From the NCBI RefSeq assembly GCF_058153355.1, contig NZ_CM177019.1: a stretch of 64,000 nt of DNA. The stretch is one strand, 5' to 3'. Each line of letters starts with the position of its first letter. Position 1 is the first letter of the stretch. This document shows positions 2,133 through 57,291 of the stretch, one piece after another. The notes beneath the pieces were generated by a model. That model was not told where the DNA came from and made no database searches. It saw nothing but the letters and a program-made list of their open reading frames with translations. The translations under genes and the position numbers were made by a program.

Positions 2133-3448
2133 TTATTCACCTCCACATGCCCCTCCAGTACGTCAATCATCCCGTCAGCAATCGCGGTTTCAAGCGACTG
2201 TGCAGATACGCGGCTGATACTGACCAGCACATCCGCACGGTCATTCTGCCTGCCGACTGTCTGTGATGTTCTGACCACAATCCGGGCCATGCCGTCACGG
2301 GTTGCCACAACATACAGCAACTGGTGGTTCTCCCTGTCCCACAATACTGCCTGTGGTTTTGCCATCAGCGACGGCAGATGCTGTAAATCCTCCGGTTTCA
2401 GGGCGGCATCAGCAGTGGTCGCCAGACTTTTCCCGTTCATCACAAGCAGACGGGCTGGCATATTCCCGGTGCGCTGATGTACGGCTTCAGCTACCGATTC
2501 CGTCATAAAACCCAGTGCCCGGATTTCATGACCGGTCTGACGTGATCCTGCCAGGCGTTTAAGCCAGAGGGAAAAAGCAAGCTGACGCTCCCGGCTGTTA
2601 TTCAGCGTCTGAACAACCTGCTCACGCAACTGCGCGTCGCGAATTTCCACCAGTTTTCGAATCAGTGCCTGATCCGTACCAAATGCCGCCGAACCGGGGT
2701 TATATGACCAGCCCACATCCGGCGTCATTTTTACCCGACCGTTGTCAAACGTGGTTGACGATGTGCGGAAAATCTCTCCGGTGCTTTCATCCGTACCGGC
2801 ATCCACTTCGCGGGTATTCATGAATGACGCACCATAACTGACCTGTAGCCCCAGTTCTTTCATGCGGGCCGCAGACAGCGCCCGGACGCGACAGCGGCAG
2901 TTCCAGCCATTGGGCGGGTAATGCGTCTGCCAGAAAATGTCGTCATACCGGAAAACCATATTGTGCAGCCGCGCATGTTCCGGGCGTGTTCTGCCATCCA
3001 TAACGGCAACGTACTGCCAGTACGGGTACAAATCGGCGGTATTCATCATCTGCGCATAACGTCCTGCCCCATACGCCGTACGGGTATTGACGTTATAAAT
3101 GGTTGCCAGACGACGCGGACTGCCCAGCTCGATTACCTTCGCGTTTCCGTCTGCATCCACGATGATTTGTTTTCCCCACCATCCGAGTTTTTGCAGCCGG
3201 GGGGCCAGTGTGCGGGTAAATTCCTCACGGGTGATGCCTTCACTGACAGCCCGCTCCACTTCCTCACGGATTGTGGTCAGGACATCCATCCGGGTGGCTT
3301 TGGCAACGGTAAAGGCGCGGGCGTGCGCGTCTGCCAGTTGTTCGTACCAGTTCCAGGTGATGTTGTAGCCTTTGGCGCGGAAATACGCGACAGCCTCCTT
3401 TGGCGGGAGGCGTGCGGCATACGCCAGATCAATGGTCTGCTGCGGCAT
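2129..3448 (-). CDS. F: Mu F protein (gp30), head morphogenesis
   Basis: ORF track 2129..3484 begins at a GTG; the ATG at 3448 (MPQQTIDLAY...) has a GGGGG Shine-Dalgarno 7 nt upstream, so the shorter start is preferred. Confidence 0.8.
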   Translation of the reverse strand: MPQQTIDLAYAARLPPKEAVAYFRAKGYNITWNWYEQLADAHARAFTVAKATRMDVLTTIREEVERAVSEGITREEFTRTLAPRLQKLGWWGKQIIVDADGNAKVIELGSPRRLATIYNVNTRTAYGAGRYAQMMNTADLYPYWQYVAVMDGRTRPEHARLHNMVFRYDDIFWQTHYPPNGWNCRCRVRALSAARMKELGLQVSYGASFMNTREVDAGTDESTGEIFRTSSTTFDNGRVKMTPDVGWSYNPGSAAFGTDQALIRKLVEIRDAQLREQVVQTLNNSRERQLAFSLWLKRLAGSRQTGHEIRALGFMTESVAEAVHQRTGNMPARLLVMNGKSLATTADAALKPEDLQHLPSLMAKPQAVLWDRENHQLLYVVATRDGMARIVVRTSQTVGRQNDRADVLVSISRVSAQSLETAIADGMIDVLEGHVEVNK

Positions 3449-37709: not shown

Positions 37710-39119
37710 ATGCAACGAGGGATAGTCTGGGTAGTCGATGACGATAGTTCCATCCGTTGGGTGCTTGAACGTGCGCTCGCTGGAGCGGGTTTAACCTGTA
37801 CGACATTTGAGAACGGCGCGGAAGTACTGGAGGCGCTGGCGAGCAAAACGCCGGATGTGCTGCTTTCAGATATCCGTATGCCGGGAATGGACGGGCTTGC
37901 GCTGCTCAAGCAGATTAAACAGCGCCATCCGATGCTTCCGGTCATCATTATGACCGCACATTCCGATCTGGATGCTGCCGTCAGCGCCTATCAACAAGGG
38001 GCGTTTGATTATCTGCCCAAACCGTTTGATATCGACGAAGCCGTGGCGCTGGTTGAGCGCGCCATCAGCCATTATCAGGAACAGCAGCAACCGCGTAATG
38101 TTCAGCTTAACGGCCCGACGACCGATATCATCGGCGAAGCGCCAGCCATGCAGGACGTGTTCCGGATTATCGGTCGGCTTTCACGTTCTTCTATTAGCGT
38201 GCTGATTAACGGCGAATCCGGCACCGGTAAAGAACTGGTCGCTCATGCCCTGCATCGCCACAGTCCTCGAGCCAAAGCGCCGTTTATCGCGCTGAATATG
38301 GCGGCTATCCCGAAGGATTTGATCGAATCAGAACTGTTCGGTCACGAGAAAGGCGCGTTTACCGGCGCGAATACTATTCGTCAGGGGCGTTTTGAACAGG
38401 CCGATGGCGGCACGTTATTCCTCGATGAAATTGGCGATATGCCGCTCGATGTACAGACGCGTTTGCTGCGCGTGCTGGCAGACGGTCAGTTTTATCGCGT
38501 TGGCGGCTATGCGCCGGTGAAAGTGGATGTGCGGATTATCGCTGCAACCCATCAGAATCTCGAACAGCGGGTACAGGAAGGCAAGTTCCGTGAGGATTTG
38601 TTCCACCGCCTGAACGTTATCCGCGTTCATCTGCCGCCGCTGCGTGAGCGTCGGGAAGATATTCCCCGTCTGGCACGCCATTTTTTACAGGTTGCCGCGC
38701 GCGAACTGGGCGTAGAAGCGAAGTTGCTGCATCCGGAAACCGAAGCCGCGCTGACGCGTCTGGCATGGCCGGGTAACGTGCGCCAGCTGGAAAACACCTG
38801 CCGTTGGTTAACGGTGATGGCCGCCGGGCAGGAAGTGTTGATTCAGGATTTGCCTGGCGAACTGTTTGAATCAACGGTTGCGGAGAGTACTCCGCAAATG
38901 CAACCGGACAGTTGGGCAACGCTGTTAGCGCAGTGGGCAGACAGAGCGCTGCGTTCCGGTCATCAAAATTTGCTTTCCGAAGCGCAGCCTGAGCTTGAGC
39001 GGACGTTACTGACGACCGCGTTGCGACATACGCAGGGGCATAAACAGGAAGCGGCGCGGCTACTTGGCTGGGGGCGTAACACCCTGACGCGGAAGTTAAA
39101 AGAGCTGGGGATGGAGTGA
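37710..39119 (+). CDS. glnG: Nitrogen regulation response regulator NtrC (sigma54 activator)
   Basis: Track ORF 37650..39119; ATG at 37710 gives [23 protein letters not shown]...; [11 protein letters not shown]+ motif. Confidence 0.95.
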
Positions 39120-39230
39120 TTCACAGCTTGTGTGTAAAGATTGATTATTGAGCGCAAATTGCTGGTATTTTGCGCTTTACTGTTCCGATAAGTTCAGTAT
39201 GATCTTGCCCGGAAAACGGGGAGAGTCATT

Positions 39231-39341
39231 ATGCTGGAATCAATAATTAATCTGGTATCGAGTGGCGCAGTTGACAGCCACACACCGCAAACTGCCGTTG
39301 CTGCCGTGCTGTGTGCTGCGATGATTGGGCTGTTTAGCTGA
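39231..39341 (+). CDS. yshB: Small membrane protein YshB (36 aa), absent from the ORF track
   Basis: ATG at 39231 after GGGGAGAG; translation MLESIINLVSSGAVDSHTPQTAVAAVLCAAMIGLFS; position between glnG and hemN. Confidence 0.75.
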   Translation: MLESIINLVSSGAVDSHTPQTAVAAVLCAAMIGLFS

Positions 39342-39470
39342 AGCTCGTTGTTTATGCCGGATGCGGAGAAAGTCGTAGGCCTGATAAGACGCGACCAGCG
39401 TCGCATCAGGCATCATGCTCAGATGCCGGATGCAGCGTAAACGCCTTATCCGGCCTACAAAAGCAATAAT
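39342..39470. repeat. REP (repetitive extragenic palindromic) elements
   Basis: gccggatgcgg...cgcatcaggc and cgccttatccggcctac REP-type palindromes. Confidence 0.7.
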
Positions 39471-39569
39471 TTCAACAGGTTTTCTTAACCAGCGCATCAA
39501 GCAATCTTGTTCTCAGCACATTGATGGCGCTTTCGTTTTCTACTTTGTAAACGAAGCGCCATTCACCAT

Positions 39570-40943
39570 TTAAATCACCCGTGAGAACTGCTGCATCCGC
39601 GCTTTCTGGCGCAGATAGGTATCAAAGCACATGCAAATGTTGCGGATCAGCAGGCGACCTTTCGCCGTTACCTGAATCCCCTTCTCATCCACATCCACCA
39701 GCCCATCTTTTGCTAACGGGGCAAGCAGCTTGAGATCTTCTGCAAAGTAGTCAGCGAAGAGCAAATCCCACTGTTGCTCAATAGGGGCGTAATCCAGACG
39801 GAAGTTGCAGATGAGCGACTTAATCACATCGCGGCGAATACAGTCATCACGCGTTAGCGCAATACCACGCCACAGCGCATTGCCTTGTTCATCCACTTGC
39901 TGATAGTACTGCTTCAACTCTTTCTGGTTCTGCGCGTAGCAGTCGCCAATCATGCTGATGGCGGAAACGCCCATCCCCAGCAGATCGGTATCGCCCTGAG
40001 TGGTGTAGCCCTGGAAGTTACGATGCAGCACGCCTTCACGCTGGGCCACCGCCAGCTCGTCATCCGGACGGGCAAAGTGATCCATACCGATAAACTGATA
40101 GCCCGATTGTGTCAGGAAGGCGATGGTTTCCTGCAGGATATCCAGTTTTTGCTGTGGACTCGGCAGGTCAGCATCTTTGATTTTTCGCTGAGCAGCAAAA
40201 ATGGTCGGCAGATGCGCATAGTTAAAGACGCTCAGACGATCGGGGTTCAGCTCCGCCACGCGTTTCAGGGTAAAAGCGAAACTCTCCGGCGTCTGTTTCG
40301 GCAGGCCGTAAATCAGGTCGATGTTGGTGGAGGTAAAGCCAATCTCACGCGCATGGTTAAGCAGTGCAAAGATGAACTCTTCATCCTGCTCGCGGTTAAC
40401 CAGACGTTGCACTTCTTTATTGAAGTCCTGCACGCCCATGCTCAGGCGATTAAAGCCTTCGGCGCGTAAATGATCGAGTACATCCAGTTCGATTTCCCGC
40501 GGATCGACTTCGATCGAAATCTCCGCATCGGCATTGAACTGGAAGTTTTCGCGCAGCAGCTTCATCAGGCGGCTGATTTGCGCTTTGTTCAGATACGTCG
40601 GCGTACCACCGCCCCAGTGCAATTGGCTGACGTGACGCCCGGCGAACAGCGGTGCACGATGGACGATTTCTTGCTCCAGTGCGTCCAGATACTGATCGGC
40701 CTTGTGCTGCTGGCGAGTAACAATCTTATTGCAACCGCAGAAGTAACAAAGCTTATGGCAGAACGGGATATGTACGTAGAGAGATAATGGACGCTCAGGA
40801 TAGCGCGCCACGGCTTGTAAAAACGCCTGTTCGCCGAAGTCTTCTGAAAACTCCAGCGCGGTTGGGTACGAGGTGTATCGTGGCCCGGAATAGTTATATT
40901 TCTGGATCAGGGCCAGATCCCAGTCGATTTGCTGTACAGACAT
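39570..40943 (-). CDS. hemN: Oxygen-independent coproporphyrinogen III oxidase (radical SAM)
   Basis: Track ORF 39570..40949; MSVQQIDWDLALIQKYNYSGPRYTSYPTA...; CxxxCxxC motif. Confidence 0.95.
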   Translation of the reverse strand: MSVQQIDWDLALIQKYNYSGPRYTSYPTALEFSEDFGEQAFLQAVARYPERPLSLYVHIPFCHKLCYFCGCNKIVTRQQHKADQYLDALEQEIVHRAPLFAGRHVSQLHWGGGTPTYLNKAQISRLMKLLRENFQFNADAEISIEVDPREIELDVLDHLRAEGFNRLSMGVQDFNKEVQRLVNREQDEEFIFALLNHAREIGFTSTNIDLIYGLPKQTPESFAFTLKRVAELNPDRLSVFNYAHLPTIFAAQRKIKDADLPSPQQKLDILQETIAFLTQSGYQFIGMDHFARPDDELAVAQREGVLHRNFQGYTTQGDTDLLGMGVSAISMIGDCYAQNQKELKQYYQQVDEQGNALWRGIALTRDDCIRRDVIKSLICNFRLDYAPIEQQWDLLFADYFAEDLKLLAPLAKDGLVDVDEKGIQVTAKGRLLIRNICMCFDTYLRQKARMQQFSRVI

Positions 40944-41131
40944 GCTCACTCCTTCCGATGGCGTCTCTGGCGGCTACGGCGTACCGGCGGATGCCCGTTT
41001 CGAGTCATCAGCCGGTTGCGCAGCCACTTTTGTCGCCGCGACAACCGCTGTAGTTTAACGAATAACCACACCAGATAACATATAACCGGAAGGGTTATCA
41101 GCAGAACGGGAAGGCCCACGGCGGCAATCCG

Positions 41132-41641
41132 TTAGTTGCCCCGCAGCAGACGCATCATGTCTTCTTGCTTCTCGTCTTCTTCCTCTTCTTCGTCATCGTC
41201 ATAAGAGAGGCCGAGTTTCTGCATCAACTCATCAATACGATCCAGTTTGGCATCCACCCAGGATTGCTCTTCGGCGCTCAGGGTTTCGCCTGCCTCCAGA
41301 CGTTCCAGCAGCGCATCCAGACGCTCATCCGTTTCCAGTAACTCCAACTCCGCCTGCGGTGAAAGCATAGGTTTCTCACTCTTCGGTTTGTGCTGTTTGG
41401 TGACTTTTTCAGTCACGCCCAATGGAATAGGGGTTTTACTGCCAATACGTGGATCTTTCGGTGCGTTCTGGCCTTTGCTGCCTGACGTGGTGTTACCGCC
41501 CGCTGCGCGGCTGCCCGGCGCATGACCACGACGTTTTTTCTGACGCTTGCGGTCACGAGCTTCCTGATCCAGCTCCTCGCGTGTTTTTCGACGCGCTTTT
41601 GCATGACCTTTGCTGCGTGAGTTTGAAGATGATGGTTTCAT
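41132..41641 (-). CDS. yihI: Der GTPase-activating protein YihI
   Basis: Track ORF extends to 41704; the ATG at 41641 ([19 protein letters not shown]...) matches the known N-terminus. Confidence 0.85.
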
Positions 41642-41704
41642 AATGGTTCGTCTTTTAGCCGTTTTATTCAGTATAGATTTGCGGCGGAATCTAACAGAAA
41701 GCAA

Positions 41705-41952
41705 GCAAAGAAAAAAGGCGACAGATTACTCTGTCGCCTTTTTTCCTGACTCATAACCCTTAACGGGTCTTACAATCCTTGCAGGCCGCCAACACACCCT
41801 GTTTTTCCATTAGCCGGAACAATCCGTGTTGATTCCATTTCCGTTTAATTACGTCTCCGGACGTTTGTCTTCCTGACAATCCTCTGTCTTCGCCTCCTGG
41901 CGCTCCTGACCCTCATCCTGAGTCATTGTTCCTGTTAGCGTCCTCGCTCTAT
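41705..41952 (-). ncRNA. csrC: CsrC sRNA (CsrA-sequestering)
   Basis: Minus strand from 41952 reads ATAGAGCGAGGACGCTAACAGGAACAATGACTCAGGATGAGGGTCAGGAGCGCCAGGAGG... with multiple GGA motifs; terminator hairpin at 41711..41744. Confidence 0.85.
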
Positions 41953-42222
41953 GGGTGCTACTTTACGCCTTTGCTTTAAACAAACAATCAACCGCCATCA
42001 GTATTTGCACATTTTCAGAGTTTTATATAAAAGCAATTAACTGATTTATATAGCTTATTTGACATGCATCGCAGAATTTTCTCTGCTATTTCGCATAAAG
42101 ACTATCGGCAATGTCTCACAAAGCGTATGGCTTTTACTTACAACGCTCACGCCGAAAAATCCGCCTTTTATTATGGTTCAGGTATAATCGCCGCAAAGCT
42201 TTGACTGACGGAGACGACCGCT

Positions 42223-42855
42223 TTGACTAATTTGAATTATCAACAGACGCATTTTGTGATGAGTGCGCCTGATATTCGCCACCTACCTTCCGATACCGGA
42301 ATTGAAGTGGCTTTTGCAGGCCGTTCCAACGCAGGTAAATCCAGCGCGCTGAACACGCTGACTAACCAGAAAAGCCTGGCGCGGACCTCAAAAACCCCAG
42401 GGCGCACCCAGCTTATCAACCTGTTTGAAGTGGCTGACGGCAAGCGTCTGGTTGACCTGCCCGGCTATGGCTACGCGGAAGTCCCGGAAGAGATGAAGCG
42501 CAAATGGCAACGCGCGCTCGGCGAGTACCTCGAAAAACGTCAGAGCCTGCAAGGCCTGGTGGTACTCATGGATATTCGCCATCCGTTGAAAGACCTCGAT
42601 CAGCAGATGATTGAGTGGGCGGTAGACAGTAATATCGCCGTACTGGTGCTGCTGACCAAAGCGGACAAACTGGCAAGCGGCGCACGTAAAGCACAATTGA
42701 ATATGGTGCGTGAAGCAGTGCTGGCGTTTAACGGTGATGTGCAGGTTGAAACGTTCTCTTCGCTGAAGAAGCAAGGCGTGGACAAGCTGCGGCAGAAACT
42801 GGATACCTGGTTTAGCGAGATGCAGCCTGTAGAAGAAACGCAGGACGGCGAATAA
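42223..42855 (+). CDS. engB: Ribosome biogenesis GTP-binding protein EngB/YihA (TTG start)
   Basis: ORF track 210 aa, [24 protein letters not shown]...; [10 protein letters not shown]1 motif. Confidence 0.9.
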
Positions 42856-42980
42856 TTTTCTTGCCTTAATGCTTGTGCCGGATGTGGCGTATCCGGCCCG
42901 TAAATTCAATAGATTACACTTCTACCGTTGGCCTGATAATCAGTGCGCATCAGGCATTACAGATCTTTTCTTTCGCCCAA

Positions 42981-43089
42981 TAAAAAACGCCCCAGTCATT
43001 ACTGACTGGGGCGGCTAAAATATTCAGCCAAATCCGATTACGTGAAGTAAAAGGTCTGAAAGATAGAACATCTTACCTCTGTACCCTAC
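42981..43089 (-). ncRNA. spf: Spot 42 sRNA
   Basis: Minus strand reads GTAGGGTACAGAGGTAAGATGTTCTATCTTTCAGACC...GCCCCAGTCAGTAATGACTGGGGCGTTTTTTA, the canonical 109-nt Spot 42 with its terminator. Confidence 0.95.
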
Positions 43090-43236
43090 GCGACTAACTT
43101 TACTCTTTTTTGTTCAGTTCAGAAAGCATTTTTTGTAATTTTTTTTCAGTTGTTGCATAGGAATTTCTAATAGCCATCACAAAACGTGACAGCTTATGTT
43201 GCTTACTTACGAAAAAAGGGCATGTTCAGGCGAATC

Positions 43237-46023
43237 TTAGTGCGCCTGATCCCAGTTTTCGCCACTCCCCACTTCCACCAGCAACGGCACATCCAGACGG
43301 GTACAGTTTTCCATCAGTTGATGAATCTGTTTCGCGACGGCATCGACATCATCTTTATGAACTTCAAATACCAGTTCATCGTGTACCTGCATAATCATAC
43401 GCACACGCGGTTGCTCAGCTTGTAACCACGCATCAACGGCAATCATCGCTCGTTTGATAATGTCGGCGGCGGTTCCCTGCATTGGCGCGTTAATGGCTGC
43501 ACGTTCAGCCGCTGCACGACGAGCACCATTGCTGGATTTGATATCCGGCAGATACAGACGGCGTCCGTCCAGCGTTTCAACGTAGCCCTGTTCTTTCGCC
43601 TGCGCACGGGTGCGCTCCATATACTCCAGCACGCCTGGGTAGCGTTCGAAGTAAAGGTCCATGTACTTCTGCGCTTCTTTACGTGGAATGTTCAATTGTC
43701 GCGCCAGACCGAAAGCACTCATGCCATAAATCAGACCAAAGTTGATCGCTTTCGCGCTACGACGTTGCTCGCTGGTGACGGTTTCCAGTGGCAAACCAAA
43801 CACTTCTGCCGCCGTAGCCCGGTGGATATCTTTTCCTTCCGCGAATGCGGTCAGCAAGCCTTTGTCACGCGAGAGATGCGCCATAATGCGCAGTTCAATC
43901 TGCGAGTAGTCCGCCGAGACAATCACATAATCCTCTGGCGCAATAAACGCCTGGCGGATACGACGACCTTCTTCGTTACGCACCGGAATGTTTTGCAGGT
44001 TAGGATCGGTTGACGATAAACGTCCCGTTGCGGTTACTGCCTGGTGATAAGAGGTATGTACACGCCCGGTTTTCGGGTTGATCATCAGCGGCAGCTTGTC
44101 GGTGTAGGTCGATTTCAGCTTCGCCAGACCACGATACTCCAGAATCACTTTTGGCAACGGATAGTCCAGCGCCAGTTCTTCCAGTACCTCTTCCGACGTT
44201 GACGGCGCACCACCCGGCGTTTTCTTCAGCGGTTTAATGCCCTGTTTTTCAAACAGAATGGTTTGTAACTGCTTGGTGGAAGAAAGGTTAAATTCTTCAC
44301 CTGCAATTTCATGCGCTTTCTTTTCCAGCTCAGCCAGACGTAGAGTGAGCTCTTCAGAATGATTATGAAGCACTTTCGGATCGATCTTCACACCGTTACG
44401 TTCAATGCGTGAAAGCACCGGCACCAGCGGCATTTCGATGTTCTCGAAGACGTTCAACGGCCCTTTGTGTTTTTGCAGATCCGGCCACATTTTCAGATGC
44501 AGCTGCAAGGTGACATCGGCATCTTCGGCTGCGTAACGTCCGGCCTCTTCGAGGGCAATCTGGTTAAAGGTCAGTTGATTTTTGCCTTTACCGGCAATCT
44601 CTTCAAAAGTGATGGTTTTGTGCTTCAACCAACGTTCCGCGAGGCTGTCCATATCGTGACGCCCGGCAACGCTATTGAGAATGTAGGATTCAAGCATGGT
44701 ATCAAACGCAATCCCACGCAGCTCAATGCCGTAATTCGCCAGAATACCGCGATCGTATTTTAGGTTTTGCCCAACCTTCAGCGCCTTTTCATCTTCCAGC
44801 AGCGGTTTTAGCAACTCGAGTGCACGCCCGCGAGAGATTTGATCGGGCGCATCAAGATAATCATGAGCAACCGGAATATATGCCGCTACGCCTGGCTCGA
44901 TAGCAAAAGAAAGCCCGACCAGGTTGGCAGAGATGTTATCGAGGCTGTCGGTTTCGGTATCAAATGCAAATACCGGCGCTTTTTCCAGCTTCGCAATCCA
45001 CGCTTTCAGTATTTCTTCATCAAGGATGGTGACGTAGTTGTCATAAGAAATCACCGTTGCCGTCACTTCTGGCGCTTCGTCTGCAACACTGGTTTCCTGC
45101 GGCTTCGCGGCTGGTTTTTCCCCTTTAGCCTGTAACCATTTGCCCGCTTCGACATCAGCAGTCCAGCGTTTGAACTCATACTTTTTGAACAGCCCCAACA
45201 ACTCTTCCGCCGCCGGTTGCTGCACTTCCAGTTGTTCACAGGTCAGCTCCAGTTCAACGTCGGTTTTAATCGTCGCCAGCTGGTAAGAGAGATAAGCCAC
45301 TTCTTTGTTTTGCTCGAGCTTCGCTGCCATTGTTTTCGCGCCACGGAAGCTCAACCCAGCAATTTTTTCTGGCTCGGCATACAGCGTATCCAGTCCGCCA
45401 AGACCTTGCAGCAATGCCTGCGCGGTTTTTTCACCAACGCCCGGTACGCCAGGGATGTTATCGGAGGAGTCACCCATCAGCGCCAGGAAATCGATGATCA
45501 GTTCTGGCGGCACGCCGTACTTATTCACCACCTCTTCCGGTCCGAGGATGGTATTCGTCATGGTATTGATAAGCGTAATATTTGGCGTCACCAGCTGCGC
45601 CATATCTTTATCGCCAGTGCTGATCAGCACCGGACGCCCGGCTTTTTCGGCTTCGCGCGCCAGAGTACCGATAACGTCGTCCGCTTCTACGCCAGAAACC
45701 GCCAGCAGCGGCAGTCCCATCGCTTTGACCATCGCGTGCAGAGGTTCGATTTGTGCTCGCAGATCGTCCGGCATTGGCGGGCGATGTGATTTGTAATGTT
45801 CAAACAGTTCATCACGAAAGGTTTTTCCCTTGGCGTCAAAGACCACCGCTGCATGCGTCGGTTTATATTGCATGATTAGACTGCGCAGCATGTTGAGGAC
45901 ACCATACATCGCACCGGTCGGCTCGCCTGCGCTGTTAGTCAGCGGGGGAAACGCGTGATATGCGCGATAAAGATAAGATGAACCATCTACAAGGATAAGT
46001 GGATTTTGGGGGATCTGAACCAT
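43237..46023 (-). CDS. polA: DNA polymerase I
   Basis: ORF track 928 aa, [45 protein letters not shown]... Confidence 0.97.
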
Positions 46024-52185: not shown

Positions 52186-52305
52186 ATGCCTGGCAGTTCC
52201 CTACTCTCGCATGGGGAGACCCCACACTACCATCGGCGCTACGGCGTTTCACTTCTGAGTTCGGCATGGGGTCAGGTGGGACCACCGCGCTAAGGCCGCC
52301 AGGCA
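52186..52305 (-). rRNA. rrfA: 5S ribosomal RNA
   Basis: Reverse complement matches E. coli 5S (TGCCTGGCGGC...GGGAACTGCCAGGCAT), 120 nt. Confidence 0.95.
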
Positions 52306-52398
52306 AATTCTGTTTCATCAGACCGCTTCTGCGTTCTGATTTAATCTGTATCAGGCTGAAAATCTTCTCTCAATCCGCCAAAACACCTTCGGCGTTGT

Positions 52399-55303
<2,905 letters not shown>

Positions 55304-55486
55304 TCACAACCCGAAGATGTTTCTTGCGATTCATCATCGTGTTGCGAAAATTTGAGAGACTCACGAACAACTTTCGTTGTTCAGTGTTTCAATTTTCAGC
55401 TTGATCCAGATTTTTAAAGAGCAAAACTTCGCAGTGAACCTTTGCAGGTACACTCTGAAGTATTTTTTATTTAATCACTACAGAGA

Positions 55487-55562
55487 TGGTGGAGCTATGC
55501 GGGATCGAACCGCAGACCTCCTGCGTGCAAAGCAGGCGCTCTCCCAGCTGAGCTATAGCCCC
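55487..55562 (-). tRNA. alaT: tRNA-Ala (UGC)
   Basis: Reverse complement GGGGCTATAGCTCAGCTGGGAGAGCGCCTGCTTTGCACGCAGGAGGTCTGCGGTTCGATCCCGCATAGCTCCACCA. Confidence 0.95.
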
Positions 55563-55604
55563 ATAACATGTAGTTAAAACCTCTTCAAATTTGCGGTGCA
55601 AATT

Positions 55605-55681
<77 letters not shown>

Positions 55682-55749
55682 GTAGAGGTTTTACTGCTCA
55701 TTTTCATCAGACAATCTGTGTGAGCACTGCAAAGCACAGTTCTTTAAGG

Positions 55750-57291
<1,542 letters not shown>

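Follow-up and report, generated by a model that had tools for sequence, protein, structure and literature searches.

Gene content of the interval

The interval under study (positions 39231 to 43089 of the window, the latter being the whole 64,000-nucleotide stretch of DNA that was analysed) belongs to a segment with the gene order glnG-yshB-hemN-yihI-csrC-yihA-spf-polA, which is part of the E. coli core genome and is inverted with respect to MG1655. The order of spf, spfP, csrC, yihI and yshB is common to the MG1655 annotation and the window, and 5423 of the 5426 complete E. coli genomes contain the 4.15-kb segment with a coverage of at least 80%. The yshB gene lies on the plus strand, while csrC, spf and yihI lie on the minus strand, the strands having been left unspecified in the first-pass annotation of this DNA. 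Base-by-base mapping onto MG1655 yielded no mismatch in the 111 nt of spf, one in the 246 nt of csrC and two, both synonymous, in the 111 nt of yshB, with higher divergence for the flanking coding sequences (yihI, 1.4%; hemN, 1.8%; yihA, 4.1%). A terminator scan also identified intrinsic terminators at the 3' ends of both RNAs.

The proposal that yshB, csrC and spf can be recognized from the sequence was borne out, all three being present at, or no more than 2 nt from, the positions first assigned to them. A covariance-model scan against Rfam, which had been suggested as the appropriate check, placed both CsrC and Spot 42 far above their gathering thresholds. Thus, the three calls are correct, and all three are already known E. 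coli genes. That the interval consists of three previously characterized E. coli core-genome genes is assigned a probability of approximately 97%, with no contradicting evidence found. Identity, boundaries, motifs and conservation of the three genes are established here, and their mechanisms are taken from published work on the same genes. Generic lists of open reading frames (ORFs) miss all three, as had been stated; as a count of what is invisible to such a list, however, the statement falls short, since a 57-codon ORF between yihI and hemN was also missed, as it escapes the 60-residue ORF threshold. The value of the three calls is one of annotation hygiene only. The RNA genes csrC and spf are missed as such by both ORF lists and the NCBI annotation pipeline (PGAP), so that a correct reading of the region requires a covariance-model pass.

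Spot 42 and the SpfP peptide

The spf gene, encoding the Spot 42 small RNA (sRNA), occupies positions 42979..43089 on the minus strand, and its 111 nt are all identical to those of MG1655 b3864. The match to the Rfam model RF00021 (42981..43099, minus strand) covers model positions 1-115 of 115 with a score of 122.8 bits (gathering threshold, 80; E = 3.6e-24). The initial placement at 42981..43089 had the correct 5' end and a 3' end 2 nt shorter than that of MG1655, which corresponds to the classical 109-nt form of the RNA. The folding z-score is −5.08, and the intrinsic terminator (42988..43013, minus strand) is a stem-loop of 11 pairs, 8 of them G-C, followed by UUUUUUAUU, as detected by the terminator scan. 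The 3' end is expected to fall in the U-tract at 42979-42987. The polA-spf-yihA synteny is that of MG1655, and of 17 other genera or species, 16 have a Spot 42 match at this locus. Upstream of spf, the best match to the CRP consensus (TGTGATGGCTATTAGA, 43181..43166, centred at about −84) agrees at 8 of 10 positions and is not diagnostic.

Within Spot 42, starting from nucleotide 19 of the RNA, lies spfP (43024..43071, minus strand), a 15-codon ORF (MFYLSDLLLHVIGFG) that includes His10 and encodes a peptide identical to that of MG1655 b4837, annotated as 'dual-function small protein SpfP'. The initial identification of spf as an sRNA is thus correct as to identity and incomplete in treating the gene as purely non-coding, spfP having been overlooked. 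In PGAP-annotated genomes, a 48-nt coding sequence is indeed found at the spfP position, labelled 'spot 42 RNA, inhibition of DNA synthesis'. The peptide is identical at 15 of 15 positions in 76 related loci, with a 12 of 12 partial match in one truncated locus. This conservation provides no independent evidence of coding because the RNA is itself conserved (92-100% identity in all but one of the loci having the RNA), so that peptide and RNA conservation are inseparable, as would also be expected if Spot 42 were purely non-coding and the ORF incidental. Nevertheless, the latter reading is judged to be quite improbable, given that spfP is now annotated in MG1655 and that detection of the protein, genetic separation of the coding and base-pairing activities and binding of the protein to CRP have been reported (PMC8916003).

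For the identical RNA of K-12, base pairing that depends on Hfq is established, with galK among the targets (PMC8916003). By extension to the present gene, Spot 42 would act as an Hfq-dependent base-pairing sRNA, repressed by cAMP-CRP, that lowers the expression of genes for non-preferred carbon sources, galK among them. The 15-residue SpfP that it encodes would bind CRP and reinforce the same feed-forward loop.

CsrC and the start of yihI

The csrC gene, for a CsrA-sequestering sRNA of 246 nt, was placed at 41707..41952 on the minus strand, between yihA (engB) and yihI, by mapping of MG1655 b4457. The match to the Rfam model RF00084 (41699..41952, minus strand) extends over model positions 1-255 of 255, with a score of 277.9 bits (gathering threshold, 61; E = 1.2e-87). 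The first-pass coordinates, 41705..41952, agree at the 5' end and run 2 nt beyond the 3' end annotated in MG1655, a difference that is within the normal uncertainty of a 3' end in a U-tract. The sole mismatch with respect to K-12 is at nucleotide 144 (window position 41809), a U here in place of an A in K-12, with a GGA motif following directly on its 3' side; the allele of the window is found, 100% identical, in other E. coli strains.

The RNA contains 14 GGA motifs, as compared with 8.9 ± 2.0 in dinucleotide shuffles, of which 19 out of 2000 reach 14. In the Rfam consensus structure, the motifs fall in hairpin loops and linkers, with at least five in hairpin loops, and the folding z-score is −6.98. 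The intrinsic terminator (41708..41747, minus strand), with GC core GGCGACAGAGUAAUCUGUCGCC and an A-run/U-run extension, was found by the terminator scan and is the terminal hairpin of the Rfam consensus; the 3' end of the RNA is expected in the U-tract at 41705-41713. Upstream of the gene, an element for the binding of UvrY, of the BarA-UvrY system, is present at 42103..42142 (minus strand) as TGTAAG-N16-TGTGAGACATTGCCGATA, an exact match to the published E. coli csrC sequence (PMC4682653); it is the single exact match in the window, with none expected in shuffles. Of 17 other genera or species, 13 gave CsrC-clan matches at this locus, namely Yersinia and each of the 12 Enterobacteriaceae that were tested.

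The Csr circuitry, including the binding and antagonism of CsrA by the near-identical CsrC of K-12, has been described in E. coli (PMC4682653). With these properties, csrC is expected to yield an sRNA of about 245 nt exposing GGA motifs in hairpin loops and single-stranded linkers, where they would bind and sequester CsrA dimers and relieve the control that CsrA exerts on its mRNA targets. Transcription would be activated by phosphorylated UvrY acting on the upstream repeat and would end at the intrinsic terminator directly before yihI.

The yihI gene (41132..41641, minus strand), which encodes the Der GTPase-activating protein of 169 residues, was assigned by mapping onto MG1655 and by NCBIfam NF003560, with a score of 169.2 bits against a cutoff of 90. 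As had been observed, the ORF in the track extends to 41704, starting there from a TTG, and its trimming to the ATG at 41641 is supported by the start annotated in MG1655, by the family model and by the lack of conservation of the extension across genera. The 21 additional codons run up to the U-tract of the csrC terminator and overlap the Rfam CsrC match by 6 nt. If the longer form (190 residues) were the true gene, csrC and yihI would abut or overlap; the frame is indeed open from 41704 both in the window and in a small number of relatives (E. albertii, Citrobacter and Raoultella). However, the alignment to the family model begins at residue 2 of the 169-residue form, the ATG is the start in both MG1655 and PGAP annotations, and in Salmonella, Klebsiella, Enterobacter, Kosakonia and others the frame is closed by a stop 2-8 codons before the conserved MK(K/P)... 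start. The first base of the longer gene would also lie 3 nt past the annotated csrC 3' end, within the stretch that the Rfam CsrC model covers, and such a gene is considered to be highly improbable.

In RefSeq/PGAP genomes, csrC and spf carry no ncRNA annotation, and a frameshifted 'hypothetical protein' pseudogene is placed over csrC. That the latter (41760..41926, minus strand) is a real decayed protein gene, with no RNA gene at the site, can hardly be entertained: in the 30 genomes listed as a sample of the 5425 matching records, the match does coincide with a 'hypothetical protein' in every case, with a frameshift and an internal stop in the one record examined closely, but the region of the window has only fragments of 39 and 25 residues, these bases lie within a full-length match to the CsrC covariance model, and MG1655 has an ncRNA there.

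As to the promoters of the two RNA genes, a simple sigma-70 scan of the minus strand flagged none for csrC or spf; a TAAAGT −10 element, read by eye only, is present 7 nt upstream of the mapped +1 of both. Sub-threshold Rfam matches to Thr_leader, mir-3926, BjrC68, NsiR1 and SpF25 were all on the csrC and spf terminators, that is, on hairpin-plus-U-tract shapes, and were set aside as due to chance.

The small membrane protein YshB

The yshB coding sequence (39231..39341, plus strand) is an ATG to TGA ORF encoding a small membrane protein of 36 residues (MLESIINLVSSGAVDSHTPQTAVAAVLCAAMIGLFS), and it maps exactly onto MG1655 b4686, giving coordinates identical to those first proposed. The protein is identical to YshB of MG1655. 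It matches NCBIfam NF033841, a curated equivalog, with 72.1 bits against a cutoff of 34, residues 1-36 being aligned on profile positions 1-40, and no Pfam family was found for it. Hydropathy peaks in the C-terminal 15-residue window (residues 22-36; mean Kyte-Doolittle value, 2.37). Of 80 Enterobacterales loci, 56 have an ortholog in this place, between glnG and hemN, and none was found at that position in the other 24, e.g. in Raoultella, Buttiauxella, Cedecea and Yersinia. As far as Serratia, Pectobacterium and Brenneria, the ORF is retained together with the motif SH[TS]PQ.A.AA.LCA..., with ortholog lengths of 35, 36, 40 or 45 codons and with length changes that keep the reading frame.

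A possible promoter-like sequence, TTTACT-16-TATGAT (39176..39203, plus strand), from a consensus scan, and a possible Shine-Dalgarno sequence, GGGGAGAG (39218..39225, plus strand; core GGAG 7 nt before the ATG), read directly from the sequence, are no more than pattern matches, and the region shows no excess of promoter-like sites over the shuffle expectation.

YshB has been treated as a small membrane protein and found to be a substrate of the intramembrane protease RseP, which cleaves it both in vivo and in vitro; in Salmonella, the homolog promotes replication inside host cells (PMC10470546). The gene is accordingly best described as encoding a 36-residue protein of the YshB small-membrane-protein family with a predicted C-terminal hydrophobic helix. 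The probability that yshB is just a chance 36-codon ORF in the glnG-hemN spacer is practically nil, in spite of its very short length, the lack of a Pfam family and the 24 loci in which no ortholog was found at this position, for the curated equivalog cutoff is passed twofold, the gene is present in both MG1655 and PGAP annotations, the two differences from K-12 leave the protein unchanged, the ORF and its motif extend to Serratia, Pectobacterium and Brenneria with frame-preserving length changes, and published experiments detect and use the protein (PMC10470546).

A 57-codon ORF between yihI and hemN

The spacer between yihI and hemN is filled by a 57-codon ORF (40946..41119, minus strand) with a GTG start, whose predicted product has one hydrophobic helix and an Arg/Lys-rich tail. 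It corresponds to MG1655 coordinates of about 4,051,869-4,052,042, is absent from both MG1655 and PGAP annotations, and is conserved across Enterobacterales, out to Yersinia, Serratia and Pectobacterium, with 57 gap-free orthologs and a crude pairwise pN/pS of 0.49. The product is identical to X067, a ribosome-profiling candidate of EHEC EDL933, according to the supplement of the paper (Neuhaus et al. 2016, PMC4765031). No Pfam family was found for the 57-residue product; a HemY_N match, obtained for the Yersinia ortholog only and below threshold (14.9 bits versus 31), was treated as chance.

The ORF starts 12 nt after the yihI stop. It ends 2 nt before the hemN ATG with a TGA that closely follows AAGGAG, the Shine-Dalgarno sequence of hemN. 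Since 57 of 70 loci have the ORF in the frame of yihI, a YihI extension produced by stop-codon readthrough was considered. This was rejected as the main reading because the yihI stop is TAA in most loci, because the ORF lies in a different frame in 13 loci and because a start codon is available in most loci (ATG or GTG at the homologous codon, or TTG three codons upstream).

A helix that would mask the hemN Shine-Dalgarno sequence is put forward as a hypothesis: it is 94.6% paired in 48 distinct sequences as opposed to 39-58% in slid controls, values that refer to a helix derived from the E. coli fold and with almost no compensatory change. It is tentatively proposed, with odds that we place below even, that the 57-codon ORF is a genuine gene under selection, for a small membrane protein conserved Enterobacterales-wide, and that translation may be chained from yihI to hemN, with ribosomes melting a conserved long-range helix formed by CCUUCCGGU, within the ORF, and AUCGGAAGGAG, at the hemN Shine-Dalgarno sequence. 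Ribosomes translating the ORF would, by melting the helix, gate the synthesis of the oxygen-independent coproporphyrinogen oxidase encoded by hemN. If the ORF is real, anaerobic heme biosynthesis would gain a small membrane protein or else a coupling leader. The ORF is still unannotated at a locus studied for decades and is the only element of the interval with some discovery value.

Comparison with known systems

The 57-codon ORF has the 57-residue sequence and the GTG start of X067, as given in the supplement of Neuhaus et al. (2016, PMC4765031); the range of its conservation and the location of its stop by the hemN ribosome-binding site were worked out here, and no description of them was found in the parts of that paper that were consulted. 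YshB is the same 36-residue protein, in the same glnG-hemN position, as K-12 b4686 of family NF033841, with no difference. Similarly, Spot 42 reproduces RF00021 and K-12 b3864 (111 of 111 nt), with the polA-yihA position, the terminator and an intact spfP (b4837), and with no sequence difference. CsrC, which is paralogous in function to CsrB, corresponds to RF00084 and K-12 b4457 with 245 of 246 nt identical, a full-length model match, the yihA-yihI position, GGA-rich hairpins, a terminator and the upstream UvrY site.

Gene order and K-12 divergence

The MG1655 reference annotation was mapped base by base onto the window, and the whole window was scanned with Rfam 15 at gathering thresholds. 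The gene order glnG, yshB, hemN, yihI, csrC, yihA, spf, polA is that of MG1655 on the opposite strand, and the stretch 39100..43250 is matched at a coverage of at least 80% in 5423 of 5426 complete E. coli genomes; the interval belongs to the core genome of E. coli or of a very close relative. The first-pass annotation had recognized yshB, csrC and spf here from the sequence. The observation is confirmed and its interpretation supported, with three corrections due: the strands have to be stated, the 3' ends of the two RNAs shifted by 2 nt and spfP added. Since yshB, csrC and spf are textbook genes of E. coli, the finding was known before. The covariance-model check that had been proposed returned both RNAs above the gathering threshold, as full-model matches on the minus strand (CsrC, RF00084, 41699..41952, 277.9 bits against 61, E=1.2e-87; Spot 42, RF00021, 42981..43099, 122.8 bits against 80, E=3.6e-24).

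Differences from K-12 amount to 0/111 positions in spf, 1/246 in csrC, 26/633 in yihA, 7/510 in yihI and 25/1374 in hemN. The low divergence of csrC and spf compared with the flanking coding sequences fits strong constraint over the whole length of the two RNAs. The yihA gene (42223..42855, plus strand) diverges by 4.1%, two to three times the values of hemN (1.8%) and yihI (1.4%), while the neighbouring csrC and spf are nearly invariant, and the top identity of the whole region to complete E. coli genomes is only 99.1%; yihA may be a recombinant or divergent allele. Outside the 39231-43089 interval, the Rfam scan also matched the ES222 sRNA (RF02755; 34774..34881, minus strand; 133 bits, threshold 62), and StyR-44 (RF01830; 55311..55419) directly upstream of the 23S gene in a complete rRNA operon (52188..57291, minus strand; 16S, two tRNAs at 55490..55562 and 55608..55681, 23S and 5S).

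The small membrane protein gene yshB

The coordinates first proposed for yshB, 39231..39341, coincide exactly with those of mapped MG1655 b4686, which lies on the plus strand with two differences, both synonymous. The 36-residue product matches the NCBIfam equivalog NF033841, 'YshB family small membrane protein', at 72.1 bits (cutoff 34), and the search against Pfam returned no family; over its C-terminal 15 residues the Kyte-Doolittle hydropathy averages 2.37. By pattern match only, the gene is preceded by a Shine-Dalgarno sequence, GGGGAGAG, with the GGAG core 7 nt 5' of the ATG, and by a promoter-like TTTACT-16-TATGAT at 39176..39203. Among 80 loci from other Enterobacterales, collected with HemN as probe, 56 carry an orthologue between hemN and glnG, extending to Serratia, Pectobacterium and Brenneria, with 35, 36, 40 or 45 codons, an intact frame and the conserved core SH[TS]PQ.A.AA.LCA. 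YshB has been handled as a small membrane protein and is a substrate of the S2P protease RseP, which cuts it both in vivo and in vitro (PMC10470546); its Salmonella homologue reportedly promotes virulence as well as intracellular replication (PMC10470546, citing Bomjan et al. 2019, PMC6689311). Between the convergent yshB and hemN (39570..40943, minus strand) a cluster of REP/BIME palindromes occupies 39348..39462 on both strands, and naRNA4 (RF02564) matches it at 39378..39455 on the minus strand (81.2 bits, threshold 59.5) and more weakly on the plus strand.

The yihI start and a 57-codon open reading frame before hemN

The mechanical open reading frame of yihI does reach 41704, where it starts at a TTG, and its trimming to the ATG at 41641 (gene at 41132..41641, minus strand) is backed by several observations. 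The alignment to the YihI family model sets in at residue 2 of the 169-residue form, the ATG is the start given in both the MG1655 and the PGAP annotation, and a stop codon interrupts the frame 2-8 codons before the conserved MK... N-terminus in Salmonella, Klebsiella, Enterobacter, Kosakonia and others; furthermore, the TTG extension starts 3 nt past the annotated 3' end of csrC, within the Rfam CsrC match.

The 188-nt spacer between yihI and hemN is filled almost entirely by a 57-codon frame (40946..41119, minus strand), whose GTG start lies 12 nt past the yihI stop and whose TGA stands immediately past the hemN Shine-Dalgarno AAGGAG, 2 nt ahead of the hemN ATG. The product would consist of one hydrophobic helix followed by an Arg/Lys-rich tail of net charge +14. 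It has no entry in the MG1655 or PGAP annotation and no Pfam or NCBIfam family, and a database of 5.8 billion proteins holds only 17 clusters of it, none informatively named. The single difference of the spacer from K-12 is synonymous in this frame. Of 79 Enterobacterales loci, 70 have the frame open with a conserved ...CYL.WLF.KL.RLS.R... core, those of Yersinia, Serratia and one Pectobacterium among them. In 57 of these 70 it shares the reading frame of yihI, and the gap-free 57-codon architecture is kept in 57 loci. For 16 representative genera drawn from these gap-free loci, pN/pS was 0.49 for this frame, compared with 1.29 and 1.12 for the two shifted ones (hemN, 0.13). At the homologous start position, 23 loci have ATG, 18 have GTG and 8 have ATY, with a TTG three codons upstream in most of the others. 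The frame is not new to the literature: its sequence is identical to X067, one of 72 ribosome-profiling candidates of EHEC EDL933, with a GTG start, placed in the yihI transcription unit, and with a translatome RPKM of 162 and a ribosomal coverage value of 0.64 (PMC4765031). This conserved, still unannotated frame is the one lead worth passing on.

The minimum-free-energy fold of the E. coli sequence predicts a long-range helix (40951..41096, minus strand) between CCUUCCGGU, the Thr-Leu-Pro-Val codons of the frame, and the hemN Shine-Dalgarno region, AUCGGAAGGAG. Such a helix may mask the hemN Shine-Dalgarno until the upstream frame is translated. Pairing is kept at 94.6% over 48 distinct orthologous sequences, one of which is the source of the helix, against 39-58% in slid controls. 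Because of that derivation and because compensatory change is almost nil, translational coupling and Shine-Dalgarno unmasking are put forward as hypotheses only.

Spot 42 and SpfP

MG1655 spf (b3864, 111 nt) maps to 42979..43089 on the minus strand without mismatches. The interval first assigned to it, 42981..43089, has the exact 5' end, and at the 3' end stops 2 nt short of the annotation, which corresponds to the classical 109-nt form (PMC8916003). The terminator at 43013..42988 (minus strand) is followed by UUUUUUAUU, folding gives z=-5.08, and at this locus 16 of 17 other genera or species have an Rfam match to Spot 42. A consensus search upstream of spf gave no convincing CRP site. In Pectobacterium and Brenneria, Fwd6_3p_UTR (RF02740) matches directly upstream of Spot 42 (comparison loci L073, 1563..1678, 150 bits, and L074, 1211..1326, 115 bits).

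The sRNA identity of spf stands, but not its listing as a plain sRNA, as MG1655 annotates within it spfP (b4837; 43024..43071, minus strand), encoding MFYLSDLLLHVIGFG. The 15-residue SpfP was shown by Aoyama et al. to bind CRP and to prevent operons such as galETKM from being activated, reinforcing the feed-forward loop of Spot 42 base pairing (PMC8916003). The peptide is identical at 15/15 residues in 76 related loci, which is not independent evidence of coding since, with one exception, these loci show 92-100% identity over the RNA as well. The PGAP annotation gives the 48-nt spfP coding sequence the name 'spot 42 RNA, inhibition of DNA synthesis', and the PGAP-annotated RefSeq genomes carry neither csrC nor spf as ncRNA features.

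CsrC

With a single mismatch, csrC (b4457, 246 nt) maps to 41707..41952 on the minus strand, so that of the initial call (41705..41952) the 5' end is exact and the 3' end lies 2 nt past the annotation; this discrepancy and that of spf both fall within terminator U-tracts. An 18-pair terminator hairpin lies at 41747..41708 (minus strand), and the RNA folds far better than its shuffles (-87.7 kcal/mol, z=-6.98). In RefSeq E. coli, PGAP places a frameshifted 'hypothetical protein' pseudogene over csrC (41760..41926, minus strand; 3261..3427 in comparison locus L001).

Among the 17 other genera or species, RF00084 was found at the same yihA-yihI locus in 12/12 Enterobacteriaceae tested (84-302 bits), and the Yersinia locus matched its clan-mate RF02767; in Pectobacterium, Brenneria, Serratia and Budvicia the Rfam scan gave no CsrC-clan match at threshold. 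The sole K-12 difference, at nt 144 (41809, minus strand), is a U here and an A in K-12 and adjoins a GGA on its 5' side (AUGGA as opposed to AAGGA). Several other E. coli strains match the 631-nt region 41600..42230, nt 144 included, at 100% identity, so the variant is an ordinary allele.

The UvrY-binding element described for E. coli csrC, TGTAAG, 16 bp, TGTGAGACATTGCCGATA (PMC4682653), occurs exactly once in the window, at 42103..42142 (minus strand), upstream of csrC. GGA triplets number 14 in the RNA, where dinucleotide-preserving shuffles give 8.9 +/- 2.0, and the Rfam consensus structure sets them in the loops of a series of short hairpins and in the intervening linkers. This is the architecture with which CsrA dimers are sequestered by CsrB and CsrC (PMC4682653).
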